32,000 bases of DNA from Geotalea uraniireducens Rf4 (GTDB taxonomy: Bacteria > Desulfobacterota > Desulfuromonadia > Geobacterales > Geobacteraceae): the NCBI RefSeq assembly GCF_000016745.1, contig NC_009483.1:2760001-2792000 (forward strand), written 5' to 3'. Below, piece by piece: positions 4,407 to 30,720 of the stretch. Made by a program: the position numbers and the translations under genes. The notes under the pieces were generated by a model. The model saw only the letters and a list, made by a program, of their open reading frames with translations. It did no database searches and was not told the DNA's origin. The first letter of the stretch is position 1. Every line of letters begins with the position of its first letter.

Positions 4407-5792
4407 TCACTTGAGACCGGCGATATACGCCTTGATGCCGGCCAGTATGCCATCAGCGGTAATGTCCTGATAACGTGGATCCTTGAGCCGGCCTTCTTCG
4501 CGCTCATTACTTAAAAAAGCCGTTTCCACGAGGATGCTCGGCATGGTAGCCCCTACCAGGACATAAAACGGCCCCTGTTTTACCCCAAGGTTTTTAACAG
4601 AATATTGACCATTCACCTTGCTGGAAACGGCTTTCTGCACCTCTTCGGCAAGATGTGCGGAATCGTTCAGCTTGTAGTTCGCCATGAGATCAAAGAGCAC
4701 TGCCTGCAAGAGACTCACCTTTTCCAGGGATGTGCCATTTTCTTTGGCAGCAAGCTGGGCCGCTTTTTCGGTCTTGGCCAGGTTCAGATAGTACGTCTCG
4801 ATGCCGTTTGCGCTGCGATTGAGGGAAGCGTTGGCATGAACCGATACAAAGAGATCGGCGCCGACCTTGTTGGCAATAGCAGTCCGCTCCTGCAGCTCAA
4901 TAAATTCATCGGTAGATCTGGTTAATACAGCATCGATCCCCAGCTCTTCCTTCAGTTTGTGTGCCAGTTTGAGACCAATCTGAAGAACAACGTCCTTTTC
5001 CTTGGTTCCGCCGGCTCCAATCGCCCCCGGATCATGCCCGCCGTGCCCGGGATCGACGACAATCCGCCGTATCTTACCCGGCTTTACTTTCGCTTTCGCC
5101 TGAATTTTCTCCGCCACCGCTTCAATCCTGGCAGTCTCGACCAGCGGGGGGGACTCCTTGATACTTTCTTTAACGGCGGAGATCTCCGGCTTACGATCTC
5201 CTTTGACATCCACCATGATGCGGAAAGGATCGGAGAAGGTGAATACATTGTAGTCCTTGATGCTGTCCAGATCGAGCACAACCCGTACGACATCCGGCCG
5301 GTACTGGGCAATGCGCGCCGTCTTCAACAGACCATCGCCAATGGCCAGGTCTTTTACTCCCGGCCCTATCCTGGCGCCGTTGATATCCAGGTAGAGACGG
5401 GGAGGAACCGACGGCTCATTTTTGGGGGGCAGTTTATGATATTCGAATCCGGCCTCCCGGTCGAGGGTGACGGCAAGGCGGGAGTAGTCGGGATTGGACC
5501 AATGGCGCATCTCCTTGACTATTGCCCTGGATGCGGGCTCAACAGCCATGGCGGTTGCGGTTTTATGCGTAACGGTTGAAGGCGTTCGCGTCTCGGATCG
5601 GGTCTGCTTTTTCGCCGTTTGTTTCTTCTTCTCCTTTGGCTTTGCAGTGCCGGTTTTTTGTTTCTTTTTGGCGGCCCGCTCCCGCTTTTTCCCCTCCGTC
5701 TCTTGCTGCTCTCCCCATGCGATCTGCGAGCAAAACGCGGTGACGAGGATAATCCAGATTAAAACAACTAATTTTCGTCGCATCGGCGTCAA
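4407..5792 (-). CDS. N-acetylmuramoyl-L-alanine amidase (AMIN domain plus Amidase_3 domain)
   Basis: 461 aa with a signal/anchor sequence, a Lys-rich linker, an AMIN-like region and a catalytic region ([15 protein letters not shown] ... SVHANA). Its start overlaps the mutS stop by 4 nt. Confidence 0.85.
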
Positions 5793-8407
5793 ACCATCCT
5801 TTTTAATTCATCCAGCAGATTCAGGGCTTCCAGCGGGGTAAGCGTAGTCACATCCATACCTTTCAACCTTTTTCGCAGCATATCTTCTCCGCTGTCAAAC
5901 AACGACAACTGCGAAGCGGGTGCCGAACCAGCGCTCTTTTTGCCGCGGGCGATGCGGGGAATGCCCTCTTCAGCGAACTCCCCCTTTTCGAGATTCTGTA
6001 AAATCTCCTTTGCCCGCTCGATGACTTCAAGGGGAAGACCTGCCAGCCGTGCCACCTGAATGCCGTAAGAATGGGATGCGCCACCGGACACTATCTTGCG
6101 GAGAAAAATGATCTGCTCGTTCCATTCCTTTACTGCGATGTTGAAATTTTTGATCCGCTTGCGCGTCACCGCAAGTTCGGTCAATTCATGGTAATGGGTG
6201 GCGAAGAGGGTTTTGGCGGCATGTTTGTCGTTATCATGAAGAAATTCGGCAACTGCCCAGGCAATGGAAACACCGTCAAATGTGGAGGTGCCGCGGCCGA
6301 TCTCGTCGAGGATCACGAGGCTTTTGGGCGTTGCATGACGCAGAATGTTGGCGCTTTCCATCATCTCCACCATGAAGGTGGACTGCCCGCGTGCAAGGTT
6401 ATCGGAGGCGCCAACCCGGGTGAATATGCGGTCCACCAGGCTGATATGGGCCTCTGTTGCCGGGACGAAACTCCCCATCTGCGCCATAAGGGTGATCAAC
6501 GCCACCTGACGCATAAATGTCGACTTGCCGGCCATGTTCGGTCCGGTTATGATGATGAGCTGGTTCTCCCCGTTATCAAGCAAGGTGTCGTTGGGAACGA
6601 ATCGTTCCCCCTGGTGCATCGCCTCGATGACCGGATGCCTCCCCTCACTGATGAAGAGGGTAGTACCGTCATCGACTAGCGGTCGGCAGTAATTGCGCTC
6701 ATGGGCCAGTTCAGCCAGAGAAGCAAGCACGTCCAGTGTCGCCAGACAATCGGCGGTACGGGCGACGATTTCGCCATGGCCGGTGACCGTCTCGCGGATT
6801 TCCTGAAAAAGAGAAAATTCCAGTTCCCTGATACGATCTTCCGCACCGAGGACCTTGTCTTCGTATTCTTTCAGCTCCGGGGTGATATAGCGCTCGGCAT
6901 TGGCCAGGGTCTGCTTGCGTATGTAATCGGCAGGGATTGAAGTCAGGTTCGTCTTGGTCACTTCGATGTAATAACCGAAGACCTTGTTATAACGGATTTT
7001 CAGGGAGTTTATACCGGTACGCCCTTTTTCCTGCGCCTCCAGACGGGCGATGAACCCCTTCCCTTCACGGCTGATGGCCCGCAGTTCATCCAGTTCCGCG
7101 TTGTAACCGTCGGCGATGATCCCGCCATCCCTCAGGACGAACGGCGGGTTCTCGACGATACCGCCTGCAATGAGCCCCACCAGATCCGGCAACGGGTTGA
7201 GCCCCTCGTTCAGTCTGCGCAGGAGAACAGACGAAGAAGAAGCCAACAGCTCCTTAATGCCGGGAATCCTCGCCAGCGACTCTTTCATTGCAACCAGATC
7301 CTTGGCGCCGGCACTGGCAAGACTGATCCTGCCGTTCAACCGTTCCAGGTCATAGACGCCGTTCAACAGGAAAACAAGTGCTGTGCGGCGGGAAGGATCT
7401 TGTACAAACTCCTCGATCGCATCCTGACGTTCCGTTATACTCTGAATGGTTACCAGTGGATAGTTAATCCACTGCTTCATCTTGCGTCCACCCATGGCAG
7501 TGGTGGTACGATCCATGAGACCGAGCAGCGACCCCTTACGCTTCCCCTCCGCAAGGGTAGCGGTCAGCTCCAGGTTTCTCCTCGTCGACTCGTCCAGAAC
7601 CAGATACTCCCTGTTCGTATAAGGAATGATCGAATTGACGTGCCCGGCCCGGCCCTTCTGGGTCTCCTGGAGATAGTGAAGAACCGCGCAGATCGCATAT
7701 AATCCGGTGTTTAAACCATCGCATCCAAGGGCAGAGGGTGAGGCGCCGCCGAAATGGCTGCCTATCAGCCGCTTGCAGTAATCGAGGTCATAAACCCAGT
7801 CGTCGACAAAGGTCGTGGCAAGCCCGGCTGTGACCGGCATCAACTCCTTCATGCGCCCGTTTTCACGAAAAACAGCCGGCAGGATGATTTCCCGCGGCTT
7901 CACGCACGCCACCTCGGCAACGGCCGCATCAAAACCATCCAATTCGGTAACCCTGAACTCGCCGGTGGAAAGGTCCAGGTAGGAGAGCCCCCAGGTCGTG
8001 GCGTCGTCACAGTAGAGGGAGAGGAGGTAGTTGTTCTCCTTCGGCGACAGGTTCGAGCTGTCGACAACCAGGCCGGGGGTGATCACCTTCACCACTTCAC
8101 GCCTGACAATCCCTTTGACGCTCTTGGGATCTTCAACCTGCTCGCAGATCGCGACCTTTTCGCCGGCTTCAATCAGTTTCGCAATATAGGGGGTAGCGGA
8201 ATGATAAGGTATGCCGCAGAGCGGGACATCTGCGCCATCGGAGTTTTTATTGCGGGAAGTAAGGGTGATGTCAAGGATACGCGAAGCTTTTACCGCATCA
8301 TCGAGAAACATCTCGTAGAAGTCGCCAAGGCGGAAAAAGAGAATTGCATCGGGATAGCCGGCTTTTATCTCCAGGTACTGACGCATCATTGGTGTGAGTT
8401 GAGACAT
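5789..8407 (-). CDS. mutS: DNA mismatch repair protein MutS
   Basis: 872 aa with N-terminus [34 protein letters not shown] and Walker A motif GPNMAGKST. Confidence 0.95.
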
Positions 8408-13299: not shown

Positions 13300-14418
13300 T
13301 TACTGGTACTGGATGTAGATCGGCTTCGGGTTCAGCTTGAGCAGGTCCTGCGGCGTCATCAGCGGGTCGCCCTTCTTCGTGTCGTTATGATAGAAGAGCT
13401 TGAAGCCGGTGTACTGCACCGGTTCGGACACCACGTAATCCTTGTACGAGTCACGCTTCAGCCATGGCGCGCCCCAGCCGTCCATGTGCATGACAATCTG
13501 CACCTCGGGTCGCAGCGCTATGCTCCGGGCATTCGTTACGCCGTTGCGCGTGAACCGGTGCACCGTCAGCACCTTCGGCGGGAGATTGTACTTCTTCACC
13601 AGGTCCTTGAGGTAACCTGTGACGTAGTTGATATCCGCCGCATCGTAGGTGCCGATCTTGGTCCCAGGCTTCTTCCCGCTCTTGATCAGGTTGAACTCCG
13701 GGTCCATGCCCAGATGCACGTCAGGATTCTTCAGTATCCATTCAAAGCGGGGCAGCACGGTCCGGATGTTGTCATGCCCGGTCTGGATGTCGATGAACAG
13801 CAGGGCGTTCGCTTCTTTGGCCCACCCGTACACCTGTTCGATGATTTTGTCCGGCATTATCATCCGGTACTTCCCGGCCTTGCCCGGCTCCCCCTGCGCC
13901 ACCACTGCGATCAGATGCAGGGCAGGCTGTACCGGCATCTTTGGGTCCGCCTTCTCCCATCGTGCCACCTCCACCTTCAGCCGACGCAGCATCTCGTCCT
14001 TCGGGTACTCGCCCAGCGCTCCCATCCGTTTGGAAAGGGGGTTGCCGTAATAGGCCACGATCCGCTTCTTCGGCAGGATCGACCCCGGCAGCGACGCGGG
14101 GCAATTCACCGGCCAGCCGCACTTCTTCGCAAACGCGGGGTCCTCACCCGCATTGTACTTGACCTTGGATGCGACGGCGCCCTTTGCTGCACTGCTCTCA
14201 TTGGCGAAGGCCTTGTCCACTTTACGGGTTGCAGTCGTCTGCGGCGCGAAGCTCGCCGCCTGGGCCACTGAAGTGGTGTTCTCCTTCTTCGCGGATCCAG
14301 CCGCCGGTTTAGTGCCGGTCTTGTCTGCCCCGCACCCCGCCAGGGCGAGCGGCAGAGCGACAGCCAGCAAAAGGAAAACAAACGAACGGTTTGACATGGA
14401 AATGCATCGGTGCTTCAC
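13300..14418 (-). CDS. conserved hypothetical lipoprotein
   Basis: GTG start with a GGAG RBS and a lipobox (LALAGC). The mature part has no motifs I can assign to a named family. Confidence 0.7.
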   Translation of the reverse strand: MKHRCISMSNRSFVFLLLAVALPLALAGCGADKTGTKPAAGSAKKENTTSVAQAASFAPQTTATRKVDKAFANESSAAKGAVASKVKYNAGEDPAFAKKCGWPVNCPASLPGSILPKKRIVAYYGNPLSKRMGALGEYPKDEMLRRLKVEVARWEKADPKMPVQPALHLIAVVAQGEPGKAGKYRMIMPDKIIEQVYGWAKEANALLFIDIQTGHDNIRTVLPRFEWILKNPDVHLGMDPEFNLIKSGKKPGTKIGTYDAADINYVTGYLKDLVKKYNLPPKVLTVHRFTRNGVTNARSIALRPEVQIVMHMDGWGAPWLKRDSYKDYVVSEPVQYTGFKLFYHNDTKKGDPLMTPQDLLKLNPKPIYIQYQ

Positions 14419-14680: not shown

Positions 14681-14864
14681 TTGCGGAAATGTTTGGTTCT
14701 TTCGCTACAAAGTTGAACCGTTGCAAACCCTATTGAATCAACCCCTGATCCATAACCAGACGCAGAGAAAAAACTCTAAAAAGCCGTTGAACTTCTCAGC
14801 GCCTCTGCGTCTCTGCGTTAATTTTGTGTTTTCTGCACTTTCAATTTAAATACGATTGAACCAA

Positions 14865-15038
14865 TTGAAATTTCATAATTCATCCTTCATACTTGCCGTA
14901 AACTCCTTGACAACCTCCTCTATGGGTGTATGAATGTTAGTAAATTTTATGTAGTACCCGGGAGGGGAGATGGGGTGCCGGAGCGCAGGTTCAGAGAGCC
15001 GCTTGGTCAGCGTGGAAGCTGATGGAGCGGCTTTTTTT
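14865..15038 (+). promoter_or_regulatory. promoter-leader-terminator module, copy 1, upstream of the CFI-box operon
   Basis: Three TTCAT direct repeats lie at 7-bp spacing (14872, 14879, 14886). TTGACA (14907-14912), a 16-nt spacer and TATGAAT (14929-14935) follow. A ~100-nt leader then ends in a terminator. The module is repeated at 17754-17934. Confidence 0.55.
14997..15038 (+). terminator. rho-independent terminator/attenuator inside leader copy 1
   Basis: AGCCGCU-UGG-UCAGC-guggaa-GCUGA-UGG-AGCGGCU followed by U7. Confidence 0.65.
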
Positions 15039-15171
15039 CTGGTCCAAGGTGGTGCCCTGGAAGCCTGACCCCGCTGGCCGCCCCTGTTTCGTGTCCCCGT
15101 CGGAGTAAAGCCTGCCAATGGAAAGATGGAAAAGAAGAAGATCCTTGAAGAAGGGGATGGGTGAATTCACC

Positions 15172-17013
15172 ATGTCTATGACTTTTAAATACATTAGCCG
15201 GTTTTTTGCGGCGCTAGCTGTTCTCCTCGTCGTTTCCGTCCCGAAAGCGCTCTGGGCGGAGGATCTGATCGTCGAGCATAACCCTACCGATCCCACCCAT
15301 TTCTCCTCCATCCAGGCGGCCATCGACCACGCCGCCATTATTTTGAGTAACCCGTCCTTGATCAACACCAATTTCCGCGTGATCGTCAAGGCCGATCCCG
15401 TTCCCTATACCGGACCCATCACGCCCATCAGCAACGTGCCGATCATCGGCACCAGTACCGCCGGAACCTTCATTTCCGGCATCGGAGCAGGAACGCTCAT
15501 CAGCTTGAGCAACGTCTCCTCGGTGGCGATCCAGAACTTTACCTTCCGGGGTGCCCTCATCGGGATTACCGTCGCGAACAGTTCAGCCATCGGCATCACT
15601 AACATCGTGTTTCAACTGGGCACAGCCGGCACTGCCGTTCAGGTACAGAACTCACCGGCTACCTCTATCATCAACAACACCTTTTTCGGCAACGGCACCG
15701 CCATCAGTACCGATTCGAACATCACCATCACCAATAACATCTTTTCCACCAACACCACGGCAATTTCGACCCAACCAACCCTGACGCAACTTTCCTATAA
15801 TGATTATTTCAACAACGGAACGAACGGAGTCACCAATCTGGACGCCCATTCCATCCCCAGCTCTCTGGTTGCGAATGCGAACCCCCTCTTTGTGAACGCG
15901 GGCAGTGACTTTCATCTGCAGCCCGGATCGCCCTGTATCAATGCCGGAAATCCTCTGTATCCCAATTCCTTCGACAGCACCACCTTCGACATGGGAGCCT
16001 ACGGCGGGCCGAACAGCGACATCCTGCTTGCCACGGTGACGGGCCTGGTTTCCTCGCTGACCACACCGTCAACCATTGCGCTCAGATGGAACCCAACCAG
16101 CAACAGCAAGGTGACAGCATACCGGGTCTACTATGGGACTTCCTCCCGGAATTACAACGGCACGCAGGCCGCCGAAGGACCTTCTCCATTGACGGTGCCA
16201 GTGGGAACCACCAGCGCGAACCTGAGCGGGCTCCCTCTCACGGGGCCGGCCGTACCGGCGGTTCCGACGCTCACCGCGACCGCTCCCCTGAACCAGGCCC
16301 TCCAACTCTCCTGGACCACCGTTTCCGGGGCGACGGGGTACCGGATTTTCTACAGCACCGCCACCTTCGATGCATCCTCGCTCCCCGCAACCTTCGTCGA
16401 TGTCGACGGCGGCACCGTGTCGTCCTTCCGGCTTTCCGGATTGACCAACGGCACGACCTATTTCGTGGCGGTCTCCGCCCTGGCACAGACCACGTTTTTC
16501 GCCGCGGTTACCGTCGTCATCAACAGCACCGTCGCTTCCAACCCCGGAAGCGCCAACGAAAGCTCCTTTTCGCAGGAGACCAGCCAGCGGGTCGGCCCGG
16601 TCCAGATGAGCGGCATATCGAACCTCTTGAGCGATTTCCCGGAGGCCATCGCCCCCTTTCCCAACCTCAAGAGCAAGGGGTGCTTCATTGCCACCGCAGC
16701 GTACGGTTTCTACTCGGCCCCGCAGGTGCAGGCGCTGCGCGACTTCAGGGACCGCTATCTCATGACCAACGCGCCCGGCAGGGCCTTCGTCGACTGGTAC
16801 TACCGTTACGGGCCGCGCGGCGCTCATTTCATCAATGCCCATCCCTGCCTCAAGCCGCTGGTCCGGATCGCGCTCTTCCCCCTGGTGTACGGCTCGATGC
16901 TGCTCCTGTACGCATCGGGCGGTGTCAAAATCGCCGTGCTGATCTGCGCGGCACTGGCGTCCGTCATTCTTGTGCAGAGAAAAAAGCTGCTGGCATTGGG
17001 AGGCACGCGTTGA
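15172..17013 (+). CDS. secreted surface protein with right-handed parallel beta-helix repeats, two fibronectin type III domains and a C-terminal [10 protein letters not shown] (CFI-box-type) anchor domain
   Basis: The signal peptide is [29 protein letters not shown]. PbH1-like repeats include [32 protein letters not shown]. The beta-helix C-cap is [16 protein letters not shown] ... FDMGAYGG. The FN3 domains include TAYRVYYG and TGYRIFYS ... TTYFVAVSA. The C-terminus reads [29 protein letters not shown]...[10 protein letters not shown]... followed by a TM helix. The ORF is open from 15118, and the start at 15172 was chosen on signal-peptide logic. Confidence 0.8.
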
Positions 17014-17678
17014 AGAGATTGTTACTGGCACTGGCGCTTCTGTTCATACCGGCCGTTGCCCTGGCCGCAGAGGGGAGCAGCGACCGTCCGCACTGGTCGC
17101 TGGAGCTGAAGGGAGGCGTCTTTTTCCCCAACCTGTCCCGCTGGTCGGATTTTTACGGCTCGAGTTTTACCTCGGAGTTCGGCGGCGCTCTGGCCTACAA
17201 GGTCAGGCGCGAGATCGAGGTGGGGATCGAAGGGACCTACGTGAGCGCCGACGGGAACGGGCAAGCGCCGCTGCATGCGCAGGTTGCGGGAGGGGGCCAG
17301 GTGGCAGCCGGACAGGTGAGCTACGAACTCTTTCCGCTCAACGTCTTCGTCCTCGCGCGCGGGGTCTTCAGCGAGGATCAGCCGCTGGTGCCCTATCTCG
17401 GTGGTGGGTGGACCAGGATGTTCTATCGGGAAGAGGTGAAAGGACAGGGGAAGGTGCAGGGCTCGACCAACGGCTTCCATGTCAGGGGGGGGATCCAGTT
17501 CCTGCTGGACCGTATCGATGCGGACGCAGCGAGAAATCTGGACCGCGACTACCATGTGCGCCACACTTATTTCTTCACCGAAGCGAAATACACTCGCGCC
17601 ACTGCCGACACCAATCCTTCCGGGTCCGTCAACCTTGGGGGTGTCAGTTATCTGGGTGGATTGCTCTTCGAGTTTTAA
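17010..17678 (+). CDS. small outer-membrane beta-barrel protein, translationally coupled to the upstream gene
   Basis: The TTG start at 17010 overlaps the upstream TGA (TTGA), with a GGGAGG RBS 6 nt upstream. The signal peptide is [22 protein letters not shown]. Alternating beta-strand patterns run to the C-terminal GGLLFEF. The 530-aa track ORF (16086-17678) is real only from 17010 on. Confidence 0.8.
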
Positions 17679-17753
17679 AAAGTGACGAATTCAGTACTGA
17701 GCCAAGGTGGGAGATTAATGAACAATACAATTATGAAGTATGAAGGTTGAATG

Positions 17754-17934
17754 TTGAAATTTCATAATTCATCCTTCATACTTTTTTTCAATCTCCTTGA
17801 CGATGCCACCTCTCGGGGTGTATGAATGTGAGTAATTTTTTATGCATGTACCGGGGAGGGGCGATGGGATGCCAGAGTGCAGGTTCAAAAAGCCGTTTGG
17901 TCAGTGTGGAAGCTGATGGAGCGGCTTTTATTGT
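17754..17934 (+). promoter_or_regulatory. promoter-leader-terminator module, copy 2, with no downstream cargo gene
   Basis: It is near-identical to 14865-15038, including the TTCAT x3 repeats, TTGACG/TATGAAT and the terminator (17891-17934). The -35/-10 spacer is 2 nt longer and the U-tract is interrupted (UUUUAUUG). Confidence 0.5.
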
Positions 17935-18016
17935 TCTTAATGGAGAAATAGACAAGATGTCCCCACCGCCCTTTTCTGAAAAAGACTATGGTTCATCCTG
18001 GCACGGCACTGGAAAA

Positions 18017-18155
18017 GCATATAATATTAGATGCCAATTGGATAATAGAATAAATGAAAAAACAGGCAAAAGCATATAATATTAGATACCTTACAGGCAT
18101 ATAATACTAGATGCTGGCATATAGTATTATAAACAAGTATATAATAATAGATGCC
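18017..18155 (+). repeat. array of five imperfect 19-bp AT-rich quasi-palindromic direct repeats
   Basis: GCATATAATATTAGATGCC (18017), GCATATAATATTAGATACC (18072), GCATATAATACTAGATGCT (18097), GCATATAGTATTATAAACA (18117) and GTATATAATAATAGATGCC (18137). A TGCTCAA-n7-TTGAGCA hairpin follows at 18166-18186. Confidence 0.7.
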
Positions 18156-18234
18156 ACATGCTAACTGCTCAATAACACGTTGAGCAAATAATATAAAGAA
18201 ATTAGGATGTTACGCCACTTTATGAGGCTAACGA

Positions 18235-19410
18235 ATGACATTACAGCAGATCATAGCGCGTGGATACGAACAGAGAACAGCGAACAAGCCGTTGCCACCG
18301 TATATGTGGAAGGCCGCCGGACGAATCTCGGTTTGTCGGACGTCAACTCTTGGCGGCCACGTGCAGGCGTGCCCTGAGGGGCACGTTGAAAGGCACTGGT
18401 ACAACTCCTGCCGGCACCGCGCCTGTCCCGTCTGCAACTATACTGCCACCGAACGATGGCTTGACAGCCAGAAAGAACGAATCCTCAACTGCGAACATTT
18501 TCATGTTGTTTTCACGCTGGACAGTGCGCTTGATCGCCTCTGGCTCGTCAATGTCCGGGCCATGACCAACATTCTTTTCCAGTCGGCCCGCGACACGCTC
18601 TTTGAACTTTTGGGTGACGATAAATACCTGGGCGCCGAACCGGGCGTGATCATGGCGCGCCATACCTGGGGGCAGATGCTCGGCCTTCATCCGCATGTTC
18701 ACTGCCTGGTATCGGGGGGCGGCCTGACCCAGAGCGGTGAATGGCGCAGTGTCGCCAACGGCTATCTGCTACCGGTGCGGGTCGTGCGCTCCCTGTTCTG
18801 CGGCAAGTTCCTCGATGCAATTCGCCGCGGAGTTGAGCGGGCAGAGCTGACCGTGCCGGATGGCGAGCGACCGCAGCAGGTTTTGAACCTGCTCAACAAG
18901 CTCGGCCGCAAGAAGTGGAATGTCTGCATCCGGGAGCGCTACGCGCACGGCAACGGTGTCTTGACCTACCTCGGCCGGTACTTGCGCGGCGGAGCCATTT
19001 CGAACCGCCGAATCATTTCGTCCGACGAAGAGCAGGTGCGTTTCCGCTACAAGGATTATCGCGAAGAAAGTGAGAGCGGCGGCAAGAAGTGCAAAACGAT
19101 GGAGCTTAGCGTCAATGACTTTGTGCGCCGGGTGCTGCTGCATGTCCCGGAACCGGGCCACAAGGTGGTGCGTTCATACGGATTGTACGCGGGAAGCCGG
19201 CGCCAGGCCCTTGACCGCTGCCGGGAATTACTCGGGCAAGAACCGGTACAGGAGCCGAAGGCGCGCACATGGCAGGAATGCGTGGCGGGACTGGGAGAGA
19301 CAAACCCCGGCCAATGCCCGGTATGCGGCTCACGGCTGGTGCAACGGGAGGTGTTTCGTCCGGAGTTCAGGGGCGAGACAAGGAAGTTTCCAATGAAAGA
19401 GGCGGCATGA
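18235..19410 (+). CDS. IS91-family (HUH Y2, rolling-circle) transposase
   Basis: 391 aa with an N-terminal zinc-binding region (CRTSTLGGHVQACPEGHVERHWYNSCRHRACPVC) and HUH-like HFHVVFT ... HPHVHCLVSGGGL. I could not define the element ends. Confidence 0.85.
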   Translation: MTLQQIIARGYEQRTANKPLPPYMWKAAGRISVCRTSTLGGHVQACPEGHVERHWYNSCRHRACPVCNYTATERWLDSQKERILNCEHFHVVFTLDSALDRLWLVNVRAMTNILFQSARDTLFELLGDDKYLGAEPGVIMARHTWGQMLGLHPHVHCLVSGGGLTQSGEWRSVANGYLLPVRVVRSLFCGKFLDAIRRGVERAELTVPDGERPQQVLNLLNKLGRKKWNVCIRERYAHGNGVLTYLGRYLRGGAISNRRIISSDEEQVRFRYKDYREESESGGKKCKTMELSVNDFVRRVLLHVPEPGHKVVRSYGLYAGSRRQALDRCRELLGQEPVQEPKARTWQECVAGLGETNPGQCPVCGSRLVQREVFRPEFRGETRKFPMKEAA

Positions 19411-19624
19411 GCAGGCAGCAAGAAGTGACTGACGATCAGCAGCCGGTGATGACGCATGCCTTAAAGACAGGAAAAACGAAGCTTCTGGGAGAGTCAAAGG
19501 CAAATCACACCACCAAACCCGCCCAAGACAAGGAAGATTTCAGCGACGGCAACAATTTACTGACAAAAAAACCGTAAATCAGCTCTGGCGGTGACGAGAA
19601 AACTCCATAGACCACAAAGAAAAA

Positions 19625-19718
19625 GCTCAACACTCGGATGGAACAGACGCGCCGATCAAGATCGCCGCTAAAGGCATGTTTTGGGGCGGCTTGCTGTTCA
19701 TCCTCTAAAACGTTGGGC
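19625..19718 (+). other. attC-like recombination site 1
   Basis: R'' is GCTCAAC (19625-19631) and R' is GTTGGGC (19712-19718). The inner arms pair with a 1-nt bulge: GGATGGAACAG against the reverse complement GGATGAACAG. Confidence 0.6.
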
Positions 19719-20229
19719 GAGGAATTTGAATTATGAATAAATTAATTGCTGTTTGGAAACAGCTTGTTGTCTGGACTAAAAACGGTAAAAATTTCTGGCT
19801 AGTTATCCTGCCATTCGGAGGGGTCGTTGCTTCGATAATACTCTTAAGAGGGTACCCAAAAGGGCTGAACATCTTAAAGCTAGAGGGAATATTAGTTGAA
19901 ATAGCTGGACTTGCTACAGTGGTATTGTCTCTTTCGAGGGAGAACAAGAAATATAACCAAAACGGATACCTCAAGTCGTTTATCGTTTGGGTTTCGGACG
20001 TTAAGTACATATTGTTTCCTCGCAACATTACCATACAAGTTGACAGTTGTTTGAGCGGTATCTCAAGTATTGGTGCAGGAATAGTAACCGGAACTCTTAA
20101 TTTCGAGAATATTGATCAGAAAGTAGAATACCTGCTCCAAAAGGTAATGATATTAGAAAAGTCTATGAATGAGGGTTTTCATAAAATCGAAACTGTGAAG
20201 TCAGAAATAAAGGCGGAGTTAGCCTCTCT

Positions 20230-21571
20230 GGCTCTGCAACGAATCAAGTGGGTAGAGGGAATAGCGACTTTAGGTTGAGCTTGCCTGCAACCAGATAAGC
20301 CATGCAGATCAAGTTGTCAGGATTCCGATAGCCTCGTGCCCGAGTTTTGGCTGATTGAATTAGGCTGTTGATGCCCTCAATGAAGCCGCTAGTCAGGCCG
20401 CTTTCAAAATGTGCCAGAATGCCATCCCAATGCTCTTTTACAGATTCGGCCATGTTCTTGATGAGTTGGATTGAGCTTGCGGCGGCTTTCCGATGCCATT
20501 TGGTCAACAGGGTTTCTGCCTCCGTTCGGCTTGAAGCAAAATAGACGTTCTGAAGGTTCAGCTTGTGCATGTAAGCTTCCGTACTCCTTAAGCTTTGACT
20601 GGTGATAATGGCATCCAGGCGCTGTTCCTCTTCCGGTGTCAGGTTCTCTGGATTTTTGAGGAACAGGTTTCTGCTCTTTTTCAGGATTTCAGGAAATAAC
20701 CTGGCTTCTTGAGCCCTTATCTTACTAAGCTTATCGTTCATAAGCTTGATGACGTGGAATTTATCGAAGGTGACCACGGCATGGGGCAACTGCTCTTTGA
20801 CACCCTTTATGAATGCCTTGGACATGTCAATAGCAGCGTCTGTGATGCTATCAGGATCGCCGCCATGTGACTTAAGGTCCGCGACGAAGCTCTTGACTGT
20901 TTCGTTGTCCTTTCCCGTCGTGCCGAACAAGAGCTTATGCATGTCGAGGTCGAAGAAGAAGGTGACGAATTTCTCGTCATGACTGCGCCCGGCAAAGGTT
21001 TCATCCGCACCGACCCTCTTCACCTCGGAGAAGTCTTCTGCGGCCCTTGCCTTCTCGACATAGGATTGAATCAACCGCCATAGACGGGTATCGGTAACGG
21101 CAAACAGCCTGCTCATGACCTTCACCGGCAAATCACGAGCCATGGTCATGGCCAGGGCCTCAAACAGCAGCGTAAATCCTGAGCCTGCGCGAGCCCAGGG
21201 TACCTGGACCAACTTCACGCCGCAGTCGCTGTTAGGGCACTTTACCCGTGGAACACGCGCATGAAGGTAGGCTTCGTACTGGAAGAAATTCAGATGCCGC
21301 CACTCTTTCTCCGTGGTGTCATGGACTGGTGACAACGTTCCGCAGACCGGACAGGGAAAGGTGGCTCCCCGCTGGAAGTCGATGGTTATGTCCAAACGAC
21401 TTGACTTCTTGTTGAAGTCAACAGAGGTAACCTTCCACGGGATGGCAATTCCAAGAGCAGCACCAAAAAGATCTTCAGGATTCATAGCGATTACTAACCT
21501 CCAGGCTGAGTGATGGTGGCCTATCTTACATCAACCCGGCCCAGGCTACCCACTCAATTCGTCGAGGAGCC
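20230..21571 (-). mobile_element. ISL3-family insertion sequence (1342 bp) with an 8-bp target-site duplication
   Basis: The terminal IRs are GGCTCTGCAACGAATCAAGTGGGTAG (left) and the reverse complement of CTACCCACTCAATTCGTCGAGGAGCC (right). The TSD GCCTCTCT lies at 20222-20229 and 21572-21579. Confidence 0.9.
20244..21485 (-). CDS. ISL3-family transposase
   Basis: 413 aa with an N-terminal zinc-finger region (FPCPVCG...RVKCPNSDCG) and a DDE domain, sitting between the IRs above. Confidence 0.9.
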   Translation of the reverse strand: MNPEDLFGAALGIAIPWKVTSVDFNKKSSRLDITIDFQRGATFPCPVCGTLSPVHDTTEKEWRHLNFFQYEAYLHARVPRVKCPNSDCGVKLVQVPWARAGSGFTLLFEALAMTMARDLPVKVMSRLFAVTDTRLWRLIQSYVEKARAAEDFSEVKRVGADETFAGRSHDEKFVTFFFDLDMHKLLFGTTGKDNETVKSFVADLKSHGGDPDSITDAAIDMSKAFIKGVKEQLPHAVVTFDKFHVIKLMNDKLSKIRAQEARLFPEILKKSRNLFLKNPENLTPEEEQRLDAIITSQSLRSTEAYMHKLNLQNVYFASSRTEAETLLTKWHRKAAASSIQLIKNMAESVKEHWDGILAHFESGLTSGFIEGINSLIQSAKTRARGYRNPDNLICMAYLVAGKLNLKSLFPLPT

Positions 21572-21753
21572 GCCTCTCTCAAATCGAATTTAGAAACGGA
21601 AATTACCAAAGTTAAGAATGACATTAAAGATAAAGCTACTATAGACTATTGTCTACTTGTATCAGGCTCAATATTAACAGCGATAGGAATGATTATTACC
21701 AATCTTCCTGATTATTATTTCAATCTTCTAAATTTGCATTCTTAGAATAGGAT

Positions 21754-21818
21754 GCCCAACCACTCGGCGGCACGCGGGCTTCGCTACGCTTCGCCGGTGC
21801 GCCTCGACACCGTTGATA
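21754..21818 (+). other. attC-like recombination site 2
   Basis: R'' GCCCAAC (21754-21760) matches RYYYAAC. R' GTTGATA (21812-21818) is a partial match to GTTRRRY. The arms are imperfectly complementary. The 5' part GCCCAACCACTCGG resembles GCTCAACACTCGG of site 1, and the site starts 9 nt after the cassette-1 stop. Confidence 0.55.
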
Positions 21819-21835
21819 TGGCTAAGGGGGTCAAA

Positions 21836-22069
21836 ATGAAGTTCTGGGCAATGACCTGCAAAGTACTCGGGTATATCTGACTGGTGTTGGCTGGACTCCT
21901 GATCTTGGTAGGCATCGTGGAGGTCTGGATGAAGGAGGGATTTTCCGGAGTTCAAAACCTCCTGAGCCCGTTTAACGTGGCGAACTATATCGTGACGATA
22001 ATTACGCTGGCTCCCGGAATTGGCTTGCTGATGCTTTCCGAAAAACTACAAAACAAGGCCAAGCCTTAG
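21836..22069 (+). pseudogene. small membrane protein cassette ORF with an in-frame TGA
   Basis: The ATG at 21836 has an AAGGGGG RBS 6 nt upstream and gives MKFWAMTCKVLGYI. A TGA at 21878-21880 follows, and the same frame continues LVLAGLLILVGIVEVWMKEGFSGVQNLLSPFNVANYIVTIITLAPGIGLLMLSEKLQNKAKP. The track ORF (21884, GTG start) has no RBS. Confidence 0.45.
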
Positions 22070-22084
22070 CCCTCCCATCAAGTG

Positions 22085-22155
22085 ACTTAACATTAAGCTG
22101 CGAGGGGGAAAGGTTTCAAGCTTAGTGCCCCCATCGCCTGCTTGACTTGTTGAGT
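22085..22155 (+). other. attC-like recombination site 3
   Basis: R'' is ACTTAAC (22085-22091) and R' is GTTGAGT (22149-22155); both fit the consensus. The arms TTAAGCtGCGAgGGGG and CCCCCatCGCctGCTTGA pair with bulges. Confidence 0.6.
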
Positions 22156-22159
22156 GTTT

Positions 22160-22184
22160 AAACGTACATTATAAATGTACGTTT
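22160..22184. promoter_or_regulatory. perfect 11-3-11 palindrome, likely the antitoxin operator overlapping the TA promoter
   Basis: AAACGTACATT-ata-AATGTACGTTT. A putative -35 TTGACT (22142-22147), a 17-nt spacer and a -10 TACATT (22165-22170) place the -10 inside the left arm. Confidence 0.55.
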
Positions 22185-22205
22185 GACCACCAAATGGAGG
22201 TTGCC

Positions 22206-22445
22206 ATGATTGAGGTGAATATTACTGAATTTCGCAATCATCTGCCCGAATATCTCGGGCAGGTAAAGAAGGGGGAAGATATTTTTCTCACCTCACGGGG
22301 CAAGGTTGTTGCCAAGGTTACGCCCGTAACTGATGAACGGGCTGCTGCTCGTGAGGCGCTAATGCTATTGCGCGGGACATGCCGCATTGGTGACGTGATT
22401 TCCCCGCTTGATGAAAAGTGGGAGGCTAGTGATGCTGGTTCTTGA
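22206..22445 (+). CDS. Phd/YefM-family antitoxin
   Basis: MIEVNITEFRNHLPEYLGQVKKGEDIFLTSRGKVVAKVTPV... with a GGAGG RBS 7 nt before the ATG at 22206. It overlaps the toxin gene. Confidence 0.8.
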   Translation: MIEVNITEFRNHLPEYLGQVKKGEDIFLTSRGKVVAKVTPVTDERAAAREALMLLRGTCRIGDVISPLDEKWEASDAGS

Positions 22446-22827
22446 CACCTGCGCTCTCATTTATGATGCCCTAAGCCCGAACAGCCTCAGCCGGAAAGCG
22501 GTAAAAGCAATCACGAAGGGTGATGAAGATGGGCTGTTGGCATGCAGCGATATTTCACTCTGGGAAATCGCCATGCTGATCAGCAAGGGGCGGCTTGATC
22601 CTGGGACGGACGCCGTCACGTTCCTGCGACTCCTTCATTCCGCCCGACAGATCCGGGTGTTCCCCATCACTCCCGAAATAGCAGCTACCAGCGCCAGCTC
22701 ATCCCTCTTTGTCCATGGTGATCCAGCCGACCGTATCATTGCAGCCACAGCCATTGTTCATAAAGCGGAACTGGTAACTTGTGACGGACATCTGTCGGCA
22801 GTCAAGGGATTGCGAGTCATCTGGTGA
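22432..22827 (+). CDS. vapC: PIN-domain toxin, VapC family
   Basis: MLVLDTCALIYD... with acidic PIN residues (D5, E in SLWEIA, D in GDPADRIIAATA, D in TCDGH). The start overlaps the antitoxin end by 14 nt. Confidence 0.8.
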   Translation: MLVLDTCALIYDALSPNSLSRKAVKAITKGDEDGLLACSDISLWEIAMLISKGRLDPGTDAVTFLRLLHSARQIRVFPITPEIAATSASSSLFVHGDPADRIIAATAIVHKAELVTCDGHLSAVKGLRVIW

Positions 22828-22925
22828 TGAATTCTGTCTGTTTGGATGAAGTAAGGGACTAAGTTAAAGGGTTACATCTCCATTCCCCACTTTTTGCAAA
22901 CAATTATCGTGAAAACAGCGAAGGT

Positions 22926-22994
22926 GCCAATCACCGCTCGGACCGTGTCCGGGCATAAACCGCCCGGCAGGTCAAGCCAGCCCCGCCGTTAACA
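22926..22994 (+). other. degenerate attC-like site 4
   Basis: GCCAATCACCGCTCGG resembles GCCCAACCACTCGG of site 2. The arms CGGACCGTGTCCGGGC and GCCCGGCAGGTC pair. R' is GTTAACA (22988-22994). The R'' core is not canonical. Confidence 0.35.
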
Positions 22995-23054
22995 GCTGAT
23001 TCAGAGAAAACAGGAACCCGTCGCGATTTCAAAAACATCAGGAGGAACGACACC

Positions 23055-25357: not shown

Positions 25358-25650
25358 AAAGAACACCTCTTAATTAGTTTATCACCTTACTACACAATAC
25401 ATTATAGCATACAAAGGCTTGAGCACTCGTTTTCCCCTCAAAGCGATAAGGTATATATCCCATTAGAAAGACCTGAGGCCGTAATGGAATCTTCTACGGG
25501 AATGTCAAACACGGCCGTATTTGTTCCCTTGACGGGATTTATAATGGTGGTAAGCTTTTTGTGATTATTATTTTCTAACAATTACTTTCCGACAAAGCCA
25601 AACCCTTCGCGAGGAGGGGGCGGAAAGCGGCGGGTCTTCGCGACGAAGAT

Positions 25651-25700
25651 GGCCGAGCTGCCGAGGGACGGGTCCTTCAGGTGGGCTCGGCCTTTTTATT
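25651..25700 (+). terminator. orphan rho-independent terminator
   Basis: GGCCGAGC ... (inner GAGGGA/UCCUUC) ... GCTCGGCC followed by TTTTTATTT. No plus-strand CDS lies upstream. Confidence 0.55.
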
Positions 25701-26550: not shown

Positions 26551-27885
26551 CAGCATTGTCCGGTTTGGTCTTTGCAAGGTTCTTTGAGAATGTAAAAAAG
26601 TTGTAAAATCAGCGTTATACCGCATTATTTGCTTGACTTTGAGTAAAAAAACGGTGGTCCGCACTCGTAACTATCCAATATTACAGGAGTTACGATATGC
26701 GACCGTTCAAACGACTGAAACAAAGACGAAAATCACGCGCTTTCAAATTGCTTCTTACCCCGATTTTTGAGAGATTCAAGTCAGATAATGAACTTGAATC
26801 CAGGGGGTATCGCCCGTTGCAAATGACTTTCGATGATCAGCTAAAAGCCCTGATCTTTTATCACTTGGAAGAGTTCTCTTCCGGGAGCGAACTTCTCCAG
26901 GCGCTGGATCAGGATGACTTCGCCAAGGAATGTGTTGCTCCCCCCAAGGGAATCAAAAAGAGCTCTTTCTTTGAGGCAATCAACAACCGTGGTCTTGAAC
27001 AGCTTTCCGAGGTATTCGGGCATCTTGTCAAGCAAGCAGGCAGAGTGCTTCCCGATGAATATGCTCACCTTGGCAATCTGGTATCCATAGACGGTTCTTT
27101 GATAGATGCTGTTCTATCTATGGAATGGGCAGATTACCGAAGCGGCTCTAAGAAGGCCAAGGCCCATATCGGCTTCGATATCAACCGTGGTATTCCAAGG
27201 AAGATATTCCTGACCGACGGTAAAGAGGGTGAGCGCCCCTTTGTTGATAAGATCATCGACAAAGGCGAAACCGGTGTCATGGATCGTGGGTATCAGTCTC
27301 ATAATCACTTTGACCAGTGGCAGGCCGCCGAGAAGTTTTTTGTCTGCCGTATCAGGGAGAATACACACAAAACCGTCATCAGAGAGAATGCCGTAAATCC
27401 TGACAGTATTGTCTTCTATGACCAGATAGTACTTCTCGGCACCAAAGGTATAAACCAGACTGAGAAAGAGCTGCGCCTTGTTGGTTACCGTATTGACGGC
27501 AAGGACTACTGGGTAGCAACCAACAGATACGACCTGACGGCTGAAGAAGTGGCCCAGGTTTATAAACTGCGCTGGAACATAGAGACCTTCTTCGGTTGGT
27601 GGAAACGCCACCTAAAGGTGTATCACCTGATTGCCAGAAGCGAATATGGTCTCATGGTTCAAATACTTGGTGGTCTCATCACCTATCTGCTGCTAGCCAT
27701 CTATTGCCGTGAGCAGCACCAGGAGCCAGTCAGCATTAGCAGGGTACGAGAATTACGCAATCAGATTGCAAATGAAGCAGCAGCCGAACAGCAGAGCCGT
27801 CGCACAAGAATACAAGGTAACTCAAACAAAATTAGACAGTTGAAACGTAAGAAACGTCGTGCAAAAACCTAACCGGAAGTTACTG
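26551..27885 (+). mobile_element. IS4-family insertion sequence (1335 bp) with a 9-bp TSD
   Basis: IRL is CAGCATTGTCCGGTTTGGTCTTTGCA. IRR is the reverse complement of TGCAAAAACCTAACCGGAAGTTACTG. The TSD ACTAAAGGA lies at 26542-26550 and 27886-27894. Confidence 0.85.
26697..27872 (+). CDS. IS4-family DDE transposase
   Basis: 391 aa with the Y-(2)-R-(3)-E-(6)-K signature in YKLRWNIETFFGWWK and DDE residues in the SIDGS and VMDRGY contexts. Confidence 0.85.
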   Translation: MRPFKRLKQRRKSRAFKLLLTPIFERFKSDNELESRGYRPLQMTFDDQLKALIFYHLEEFSSGSELLQALDQDDFAKECVAPPKGIKKSSFFEAINNRGLEQLSEVFGHLVKQAGRVLPDEYAHLGNLVSIDGSLIDAVLSMEWADYRSGSKKAKAHIGFDINRGIPRKIFLTDGKEGERPFVDKIIDKGETGVMDRGYQSHNHFDQWQAAEKFFVCRIRENTHKTVIRENAVNPDSIVFYDQIVLLGTKGINQTEKELRLVGYRIDGKDYWVATNRYDLTAEEVAQVYKLRWNIETFFGWWKRHLKVYHLIARSEYGLMVQILGGLITYLLLAIYCREQHQEPVSISRVRELRNQIANEAAAEQQSRRTRIQGNSNKIRQLKRKKRRAKT

Positions 27886-29683: not shown

Positions 29684-30301
29684 TCAATTGAAGAAATACC
29701 GCGCGCCGAACGTCATGGAAAAGTTCATGGGATCGAAGTTGCCGATTTTATCCCCACCTAACCTTATATCCGCATCGGGGGCAAGCACCACTTTTGCCTG
29801 ACCGGTCAGGGCCAGTTGCTTCATAACGAAGTAATCCACCCCGCCGGCCGCGTGCACGCCGACGACGGTATCCAAGTCCGCTTTTACCCCATCGTCGCGC
29901 GTGAAGCCGTTGACAAGGATATCCAGTCCGGCGCCTGCATAGGGGGTCAGATGCGCTGTCGGTTCGTTGAAGCGATACTGCACCCCGAGGGAGATGTTGT
30001 TGGTTTCGAAATTGCCTACCCTATCCCCGCCGATGCTGCCGTTGAAATCGGTATGGGTGATATCCAGCTCAGCGGCGATGTTCTTGTTTATGCCGTAGAT
30101 GAAGCCGCCACCGCCGACGAAACCGGTATCAGTGTCGACATTAAATGTGGGAGAAGCGGAGGTATCCTCACTGTCCGCAGGGACCAGAAAACCGATCCGC
30201 CCGGTAACGCCCACTTTTCCCGCGATGTTCTCCGCACAGGCGGTTCCTGCCATAAGGGCCACAGCCGCAACGCAACTGATCATAACGCACAATCTTTTCA
30301 T
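29684..30301 (-). CDS. outer-membrane beta-barrel protein (OmpW/OMP_b-brl type)
   Basis: The ATG at 30301 follows a GGAGGA RBS. The signal peptide is MKRLCVMISCVAAVALMAGTACA. Alternating strands run to the C-terminal GARYFFN. The upstream part of the track ORF (to 30478) has no coding features. Confidence 0.8.
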   Translation of the reverse strand: MKRLCVMISCVAAVALMAGTACAENIAGKVGVTGRIGFLVPADSEDTSASPTFNVDTDTGFVGGGGFIYGINKNIAAELDITHTDFNGSIGGDRVGNFETNNISLGVQYRFNEPTAHLTPYAGAGLDILVNGFTRDDGVKADLDTVVGVHAAGGVDYFVMKQLALTGQAKVVLAPDADIRLGGDKIGNFDPMNFSMTFGARYFFN

Positions 30302-30476
30302 ATCTTTCCTCCTGTCATTGACATTGTTTATATTATTTTCTGTTTTTTCCGCGCACTTTGCGCGGAAGTTCACCCTGTCCGTCTGCCGCGAAAACCGGCG
30401 ATTCCTGCATCCACCGCAGACAGATGTAACCGTGTACGTGTACCGCTTCACCACCTCCCTTCTGCCGATTTTCCAC

Positions 30477-30526
30477 AAAAAAAAGCCGGGTTGCCGAATA
30501 TCGTCTGATATTTCGGCAACCCGGCT
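30477..30526 (-). terminator. strong rho-independent terminator
   Basis: The minus strand reads AGCCGGGTTGCCGAAATAT-cagacg-ATATTCGGCAACCCGGCT (one bulged base) followed by T8. Confidence 0.8.
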
Positions 30527-30720
30527 GTCTGGCTTGAGACCCTTTAGGCTTTCCGCCCCATCCTCACGGATGGTTTAGTATTATCGTCTACCAACTGCAC
30601 GTGCTCATCTGTATTTCGTAACGCGGTACTGTTCTTACCAAAGAACCGCGCCGGATGTCAATGAAAAACACATTACACCCTCCCCCCACCCCCTCCCATC
30701 AAGGGAGTGGAGCTTTAAAG

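Follow-up and report, generated by a model that had tools for sequence, protein, structure and literature searches.

A Secreted CFI-Box Protein and an Overlapping Outer-Membrane Barrel in Geotalea uraniireducens: a Probable Envelope Module of the SgmI–MXAN_2562 Kind

Introduction

In Myxococcus xanthus, sgmI (MXAN_2561) and the gene downstream of it, MXAN_2562, are apparently co-transcribed, and insertions in the two genes give matching fitness profiles that resemble those of exopolysaccharide (EPS) and lipopolysaccharide (LPS) mutants (bioRxiv 10.64898/2026.08.28.747804). Here we describe a gene pair of comparable layout in a stretch of 32,000 nucleotides from Geotalea uraniireducens Rf4, a member of the Geobacteraceae (contig NC_009483.1, positions 2,760,001 to 2,792,000). 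This whole stretch is called the window. The upstream gene (gene A) encodes a secreted protein that carries a CFI box near its C-terminus, and the downstream gene (gene B) a small outer-membrane beta-barrel. The pair as such is already on record, the MXAN_2561 and MXAN_2562 families both being named in NCBIfam; what is new is a form that is tagged by a CFI box and bears a beta-helix.

Other features of M. xanthus are relevant for comparison. The C-terminal tag MYXO-CTERM is cut in a Cys-dependent manner by the CPBP protease MrtX, and the protein goes to the cell surface (PMC11980579). The type II secretion system has been credited with the surface localization (PMC11980579; Haft preprint). Four bases are shared by the overlapping genes traA and traB, whose mutants have identical phenotypes (PMC3325183).

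The CFI box is among the largest uncharacterized C-terminal modules on exported prokaryotic proteins. A full-text search for papers on 'CFI-box' returned none, and we know of no cognate protease for it. From the evidence collected below, we consider it probable that A and B form a self-contained two-gene module of the envelope or surface, of the sgmI–MXAN_2562 kind, in which the CFI box serves as an interchangeable C-terminal module for anchoring or sorting.

The Two Genes and Their Products

Coordinates are those of the window, on its forward (+) strand unless marked (-). Gene A (15172..17013) codes for a secreted protein of 613 amino acids (aa) and ends with a TGA at 17011-17013. Its start is placed at the ATG at 15172 (MSMTFKY...), the alternatives being 15157, 15178 and 15118. 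The choice of 15172 (or 15178) is likely because in a relative that is 95% identical at the DNA level (locus L180) the called gene begins with MSMTF, and upstream in-frame ATGs are absent. The protein consists, in order, of a signal peptide, a beta-helix, two FN3 domains, a conserved linker, the CFI-box-CTERM domain, a transmembrane (TM) helix and a basic tail. The Sec signal peptide, as read from the sequence, comprises aa 1-29 (15172..15258), with predicted cleavage between ...PKALWA and EDL; the equivalent region forms the N-terminal helix in the AlphaFold2 (AF2) model of a homologue, P0121. The core of the parallel beta-helix (aa 102-248; 15475..15915) matches NosD of Pfam (PF05048; 29.6 bits, cutoff 23.6), and PF13229 (Beta_helix) is present in homologues. 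The fn3 family (PF00041) matches A in two stretches (E = 5.7e-11). A secreted beta-helix protein with two FN3 domains is what an earlier note, made from the DNA letters, had read here, and the searches bear it out. It is the second FN3 domain (aa 365-439; 16264..16488) that resembles SgmI: NF045522, the equivalog model for MXAN_2561/SgmI (cutoff 150 bits), gives 26.3 bits (E = 4.7e-6) over aa 361-436. The match covers profile positions 168-240, that is, one FN3 domain.

The C-terminal domain was taken in the same note for a CFI-box-CTERM domain, to be confirmed by a hidden Markov model (HMM) search. In that search NF041770 (CFI_box_CTERM; cutoff 40 bits) scores 97.7 bits, with the entire model (1-69 of 69) aligned to aa 504-572 of 613 (16681..16887). 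The DNA encoding CFIATAAYG begins at 16681; its Cys504 is invariant and is followed by conserved helices. The MYXO-CTERM tag (TIGR03901) has no match in A in the HMM search, and the CFI box stands in its place. An AF2 model of the 119-aa tail of A itself has five helices (predicted local distance difference test, pLDDT, 84.8). The CFI domain is a unit of ~70 aa and four helices that precedes the TM helix (aa ~584-601), which is followed by the basic tail (aa 602-613; helix and tail together 16921..17010). The tail as first described, a single amphipathic segment and then a TM helix, therefore stands as to the TM helix, while the amphipathic segment gives way to the four-helix domain. In tripartite sorting signals of the MYXO-CTERM, PEP-CTERM and GlyGly-CTERM class, a short motif is followed at once by a TM helix and then by an Arg/Lys-rich cluster. 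A Cys motif, a TM helix and basic residues can each be recognized in A, but ~70-80 aa of conserved helices lie between the Cys and the TM helix, and the CFI box is no classic tag of that class. Conservation among orthologues is highest in the CFI core of A (mean majority-residue frequency 0.79; 34 of 69 columns at 90% or above), and the TM helix with the tail is the least conserved. A Foldseek search of the PDB with the model of the CFI C-terminus found nothing at E < 5, and a PDB sequence search with the CFI tail found no significant relative.

Gene B (17010..17678) encodes a 222-aa barrel of the MXAN_2562 family that ends in LLFEF. Its TTG start (17010-17012) lies on the TGA stop of A, the two genes sharing TTGA at 17010-17013. 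The family assignment rests on NF040596 (cutoff 100 bits), which scores 157.8 bits over its full length (1-208 of 208) at aa 28-222. The mature barrel (17067-17675), which closes with a C-terminal aromatic beta-signal, comes after a signal peptide that has an AxA site (aa 1-19, ...AVALA before AEG; 17010-17066). The overlap, the 222-aa outer-membrane barrel and its LLFEF end had all been pointed out before. So had the masking of the TTG start in the list of open reading frames (ORFs) by a spurious 530-aa ORF (16086-17678), which we also rejected as a real gene, its upstream portion being an off-frame of gene A.

In Pfam, B has no match at E <= 0.01, PF00691 included; some barrel homologues match the generic PF13505 (OMP_b-brl). 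A word-indexed protein search with B found barrel homologues in 382 clusters. The barrel of a homologue 54% identical to B, taken from the AF2 model of a fusion, has 8 strands and is matched by Foldseek to the OmpA TM domain (1bxw; TMt 0.74), and a PDB sequence search with the barrel profile returned nothing significant. With eight strands in the model, B would be an OmpA-like barrel too small and narrow for the export of a polypeptide, which argues against a role as an export pore. A disulfide link of A to the barrel was considered and dropped, as the mature barrel has no Cys.

A Conserved Pair, Separate or Fused

A profile of 30 barrel homologues led to 48 genome loci, whose hosts are Geobacteraceae (Geomonas among them), many Nitrospirota, a Betaproteobacteria metagenome-assembled genome (MAG), Chromatiales and Myxococcales. 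A CFI-box FN3 protein is found upstream of the barrel in 43 of the 44 loci that have enough upstream sequence; L036 is the only evaluable locus without a CFI protein. The 43 paired loci divide into 38 with separate genes, four with fused genes and one (L020) with an intervening gene. The last, from Nitrospiria, has a gene for a 146-aa CBS-domain protein (5407-5847 of that locus) between the CFI-box and barrel genes, and the 4-nt overlap is broken there. At least 30 of the 38 unfused pairs keep the same 4-nt overlap, NTGA, the barrel starting with TTG, GTG or ATG. The overlapping starts are followed by K/R-K and then by a hydrophobic signal peptide. That the overlap is kept so widely supports the TTG start of B. 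Judging from the sequences, A and B are translationally coupled through the TTGA overlap.

When neighboring ORFs around the 48 barrel loci were clustered, only A and B came out as conserved, and no sorting protease was recurrent there. A pair of genes for an FtsX-type ABC permease and its ATPase is seen in 16 Nitrospirota loci (L007, L009, L013, L018, L019, L021 and others), ~0.8-2.8 kb downstream of the barrel and on the opposite strand; it is also present in L036. Its position beside the cassette is probably a matter of lineage synteny; alternatively, it may reflect a Lol/MacB-like link to surface sorting.

In Geomonas limicola, Geomonas silvestris and several MAGs, A and B are a single ORF of ~830 aa. 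The G. limicola fusion (GMLC_29680), used as query, brought at least 34 full-length fusion clusters (802-858 aa; 43-100% identity). In all 34, the passenger is succeeded by the CFI box, the TM helix, a basic loop (RRK...), another hydrophobic segment and, last, the mature N-terminus of the barrel. The second hydrophobic segment is like a signal peptide, with small residues at -1/-3 (e.g., LAQG before AE), and signal peptidase would be expected to cut the fusions before the barrel. Since in the fusions the basic loop and then the signal peptide of the barrel directly follow the TM helix, the tail of A is predicted to run from the periplasm to the cytoplasm (N-out, C-in), with its basic residues on the cytoplasmic side.

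The AF2 model of the G. limicola fusion (P0121; 107 aligned sequences) has a mean pLDDT of 87.6 and a predicted TM-score (pTM) of 0.58. Its parts are a beta-helix, two FN3-like sandwiches, the conserved linker, which is partly beta-stranded, the helices of the CFI domain and the TM segment, a signal-peptide helix and an 8-stranded barrel. Foldseek likens the middle of the model to tandem FN3 domains. The existence of fused, "Rosetta-stone" proteins suggests that A and B act together and in equal amounts. The stoichiometric co-expression that the earlier note had deduced from the overlap in the window is thus supported by the constancy of the partner, by the conserved NTGA and by the natural fusions. 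B is accordingly a dedicated partner of this protein, and one made in equal amounts. The pairs collected, in operons or fused, number about 75.

A Change of Tag in the Myxococcota

The myxobacterial branch of the barrel family was reached by a search with a Myxococcales barrel from L046. In two loci (L174 and L179), a protein like MXAN_2561 (SgmI) is followed by the barrel. The upstream protein of L174 has a scoring MYXO-CTERM tag, and that of L179 a MYXO-CTERM-like tail (GGGFCALE..., a TM helix and six Arg), in agreement with the end of the SgmI model. Two more loci, L177 and L046, have an SgmI-like protein (82.8 and 64.2 bits, respectively) with a CFI box (80.5 and 84.2 bits), and again the barrel follows, the start overlap being ATGA. 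Independent fusions are found in P0482, P0486 and P0460, all from Myxococcota, which join FN3, MYXO-CTERM, a signal peptide and the barrel. When the regions before the tags are aligned, the Cys of the CFI box falls into the column of the MYXO-CTERM Cys, after a common DF[WY]xxYxxxGGxxxGG[FY]C.

The distal beta-helix is absent from the barrel partners in Myxococcota. What all barrel-linked proteins have in common is a membrane-proximal FN3 domain, the linker and a tag. Because the same barrel family pairs or fuses with either CFI-box or MYXO-CTERM homologues, the barrel tracks the lineage of the FN3 protein across the change of tag, and not the CFI box.

The CFI Box at Large

The CFI box was also surveyed in its own right. 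A metagenome scan for DNA encoding CFIATAAYG gave at least 120 loci, to which 5 loci on viral contigs were added, with 131 CFI genes in all; the counts from this survey hold among the matches listed. A barrel-family match lies behind 3 of the 87 CFI genes whose downstream sequence extends for 700 nt or more. Two of the three (L104 and L141) are plain A-B orthologues, and the other (L135) is distant (26 bits). When 1.84 billion cluster representatives were searched exhaustively with the 119-aa tail, the CFI box turned up in 21,584 of them (E <= 1e-3). The parts N-terminal to the box in the 131 genes range from a few dozen to ~2,200 aa, and the passengers include subtilases, VWA domains, an M6 peptidase, PD40 propellers, He_PIG and InlB-B repeats. 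As to a recurrent neighbor or a sorting enzyme of the CFI genes, ORF clustering found no family in more than 6 of the 125 loci among the matches listed.

Of the complete CFI tails in the survey (L054-L173), 69 of 117 run into a TM helix with basic residues. The other 48 (~41%) stop after ~80 aa with an amphipathic helix, without a TM segment or a basic cluster. The family is a mixture of TM-anchored and TM-less forms. Small CFI-box proteins of ~170-300 aa occur on IMG/VR contigs classed as viral (L049-L053). In some large proteins (P0247, P0292 and P0361), the domain is internal or duplicated, and hence is not strictly C-terminal.

With a barrel behind 3 of 87 genes among the matches listed, and 21,584 CFI proteins as against 382 barrel clusters, the CFI box is no barrel-specific signal but a conserved module of ~70 aa, helical and widespread. 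The co-occurrence survey that the earlier note had named as the test of its proposal thus gives a different answer in each direction: from the barrel to the CFI box the association holds, and from the CFI box to the barrel, among the matches listed, it does not.

How the Pair May Work

In the scheme that we favor, A would leave the cytoplasm through Sec, its C-terminal helix initially keeping it in the inner membrane, with the passenger and the CFI domain in the periplasm and the basic tail in the cytoplasm. B, made 1:1 with A, would be exported by means of a signal peptide of its own and enter the outer membrane as a small OmpA-like barrel. There it would serve not as a pore but as the cognate partner on which the membrane-proximal part of A (FN3 and linker) docks or is retained. 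The CFI box would take the role of MYXO-CTERM as a modular, Cys-dependent element for anchoring or sorting, with the machinery encoded elsewhere. After a processing like that of the MYXO-CTERM tag, the C-terminal end of A would come to lie beside the barrel. Such a placement fits best because the part common to barrel-linked proteins is the membrane-proximal one and not the beta-helix. The passenger, with its beta-helix and FN3 domains, and the phenotypes of SgmI suggest binding of glycans or matrix polysaccharide, or adhesion, as a possible function.

A fuller version of the scheme is offered tentatively, as possible yet doubtful. The CFI box would be a Cys-dependent signal for surface sorting or anchoring that can functionally replace MYXO-CTERM and is processed by some membrane protease, and the barrel, as a receptor in the outer membrane, would keep hold of the FN3 protein once processed. 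From the fused genes of Geomonas and Myxococcota would then come membrane-embedded polyproteins, out of which two proteases, the sorting enzyme and signal peptidase, would release a surface protein and its barrel.

Several points weigh against the favored scheme. A stays far below the equivalog cutoff of the SgmI model (26.3 vs. 150 bits), and its homology to SgmI, as far as the sequences go, is confined to the FN3 region. The equivalence of the CFI box and MYXO-CTERM may fail, given the 70-80 aa of helices between the Cys and the TM helix and the TM-less ends of 48 of the 117 tails among the matches listed. The 32-kb window holds no sortase-like gene, as the earlier note had also stated, and no processing enzyme recurs as a neighbor of CFI genes (125 loci, among the matches listed). 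Physical contact between A and B is presumptive, the pTM of the fusion model being only 0.58, and cleavage, lipidation and surface exposure of A are putative.

The main rival is a tether across the envelope: A would remain uncleaved and anchored in the inner membrane, span the periplasm and dock with its distal end on the periplasmic face of the barrel. The TM helix and the basic cytoplasmic tail of A are as expected for such a tether, their topology being backed by the fusions, and no processing enzyme is found in the window or as a recurrent neighbor of either the CFI genes (among the matches listed) or the 48 barrel loci. By its domain count, the passenger may in principle be long enough to cross the periplasm. 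However, the conserved membrane-proximal part would then sit far from the outer membrane, and the distal beta-helix is absent in Myxococcota. Moreover, the MYXO-CTERM tag has been shown experimentally to be cleaved, with the protein moved to the cell surface (PMC11980579). We regard the tether as unlikely. The earlier note had suggested that the barrel may serve in anchoring or export; on this view it would be dedicated to the CFI domain itself and would recognize, process or translocate CFI-box proteins. In favor of such a role, nearly all barrels of the clade come after a CFI-box protein and overlap it at start and stop, conservation within A peaks in the CFI core, and no other sorting enzyme is near in the window. 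The reverse survey has largely refuted this idea: among the matches listed only 3 of 87 CFIATAAYG genes have the barrel downstream, and the 21,584 cluster representatives with a CFI box carry unrelated passengers. The barrel family is also paired or fused with MYXO-CTERM proteins that have no CFI box, an OmpA-like barrel of eight strands would be too narrow for a polypeptide, and barrel and CFI domain would be apart, the one in the outer membrane and the other tethered at the inner membrane. We consider such a role very unlikely.

The remaining explanations treat the barrel as doing either less or more. It could be an ordinary small porin-class protein, OmpA/OmpX-like, that shares the operon of A by synteny and has no functional link to it; some homologues do match the generic PF13505, and another OMP_b-brl gene is present elsewhere in the window. 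Chance company of this sort is highly improbable in view of the pairing and the 4-nt overlap conserved from Geobacteraceae and Nitrospirota to Myxococcota, of barrel fusions with CFI-box as well as MYXO-CTERM partners, and of the fitness profiles shared by sgmI and MXAN_2562 mutants of M. xanthus (bioRxiv 10.64898/2026.08.28.747804). At the other extreme, the barrel could translocate the upstream passenger across the outer membrane in the manner of a type V autotransporter. The fusions, with an N-terminal beta-helix passenger and a C-terminal barrel that ends in F, do have a superficial likeness to type Va, but the barrel has 8 strands and not 12-16, and passenger and barrel are separate proteins in most genomes, that of the window included. 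Even in the fusions they have between them a TM helix, a basic loop in the cytoplasm and another signal peptide, because of which the two would cross the inner membrane separately. Translocation by the barrel can hardly be entertained at all.

Through the aligned Cys of the SgmI-like proteins, the cassette connects the orphan CFI box with a system whose biology is already described. By way of the fusions and the tag swap, the CFI box can be approached experimentally, with two genes as a test bed. The pair bears also on how non-lipoprotein adhesins are retained at the surface of Gram-negative bacteria, and on the unexplained motility and development phenotypes of sgmI and MXAN_2562.

The Leader Element and the Surroundings of the Pair

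An element of ~165 nt occurs twice in the window (14880-15045 and 17770-17935), each time with a sigma70-like promoter and an RNA that ends in a terminator hairpin. The copy upstream of gene A (leader, 14907..15047) has the promoter TTGACA-16 nt-TATGAA(T) at 14907-14935 and an RNA of ~100 nt, which closes with a long terminator hairpin and a U-run at ~14993-15047, where a terminator-like site was found. The RNA is predicted to fold with a minimum free energy of -47.2 kcal/mol (z = -4.4). The second copy (17770..17935) is 84% identical and lies downstream of gene B; it is followed by a block of insertion sequences (IS) and has no recognizable cargo gene. In L180 there are likewise two copies (2710-2874 and 520-736 of that locus), one ahead of gene A and one ahead of a gene that encodes a secreted protein of 183 aa. 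Rfam gave no match to the leader at the gathering threshold, nor at E <= 1 over 14700-18200, and blastn against 173 loci, a set that does not include L180, found only the two copies of the window. The leader is a candidate attenuator, riboswitch or small RNA for envelope genes, and it may belong to the A-B cassette. Divergent from the leader and gene A is a gene for a 372-aa protein (13300-14418 (-)) with a lipoprotein-like N-terminal signal (…LALAGC) and no Pfam match.

On its housekeeping side, the cassette is flanked by genes for a XerC-like integrase, GlnD, an AmiC-type amidase, MutS, a sigma54-type regulator with its kinase and an iron alcohol dehydrogenase. The other side is rich in IS elements: IS91 (18235-19410), ISL3 (20244-21485) and an IS4-type element (26697-27872). 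In L180, a gene for adenosine deaminase begins 50 nt after B, and the same gene is at 23055 in the window. The shortness of that gap implies that ~5.3 kb (17686-23032) has been inserted after B in the window. This segment, with its IS91 and ISL3 transposases, looks like a recent IS-mediated insertion or rearrangement, which would also have moved the second leader copy. Just upstream of the IS91-family transposase gene (18235-19410), five direct copies of a 20-nt unit, RGCATATAATAYTAGATGCY, are present at 18016-18155; they may be IS91 end repeats or origin-like repeats. Farther along, the window has two c-di-GMP-I riboswitches, at 25588-25666 (66.3 bits) and at 30512-30589 (-) (47.5 bits). The latter is directly upstream of an OMP_b-brl/OmpW-like gene (29684-30478 (-)).

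Comparison with Known Systems

Among described barrels, B is closest in build to OmpA (1bxw) and PF13505, with which it shares an 8-stranded barrel (in the model), a signal peptide and a C-terminal aromatic residue. It differs in having no periplasmic OmpA_C domain and no detectable sequence similarity to solved structures, and in that its family has motifs of its own (NGxHxRxG and LLFEF) and an obligate upstream partner. From type Va autotransporters, in which a 12-stranded barrel is contiguous with the passenger, B is set apart by its eight strands and its separate gene.

The likeness to TraA/TraB is organizational only: a Cys-tagged surface protein is encoded just upstream of an outer-membrane partner, with a 4-base overlap. 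TraB has the peptidoglycan-binding OmpA/MotB domain PF00691, whereas B has none, and the passenger of TraA consists of PA14 and Cys-rich repeats, whereas that of A is a beta-helix with FN3 domains; no sequence homology is apparent between the two pairs. With MYXO-CTERM, the CFI box shares an invariant Cys before a C-terminal membrane anchor, a basic cytoplasmic tail and many unrelated exported passengers. MYXO-CTERM, however, is a short tripartite tag of ~34 aa, whereas the CFI box is a helical domain of ~70 aa placed before the TM helix, and ~40% of CFI tails, among the matches listed, have no such helix.

It is SgmI and MXAN_2562 that the present pair resembles in most respects. B scores as an MXAN_2562 barrel, the protein upstream is secreted, has FN3 domains and ends in a membrane tag with a Cys, co-transcription or overlap joins the genes, and Myxococcota provide intermediates in which an SgmI-like protein with a CFI box precedes the barrel. 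The differences lie in the host, which is a member of the Geobacteraceae and not of the Myxococcota, and in A itself, which has a CFI box instead of MYXO-CTERM and an additional N-terminal beta-helix of the NosD type and is ~300 aa longer than the 304-position SgmI model.

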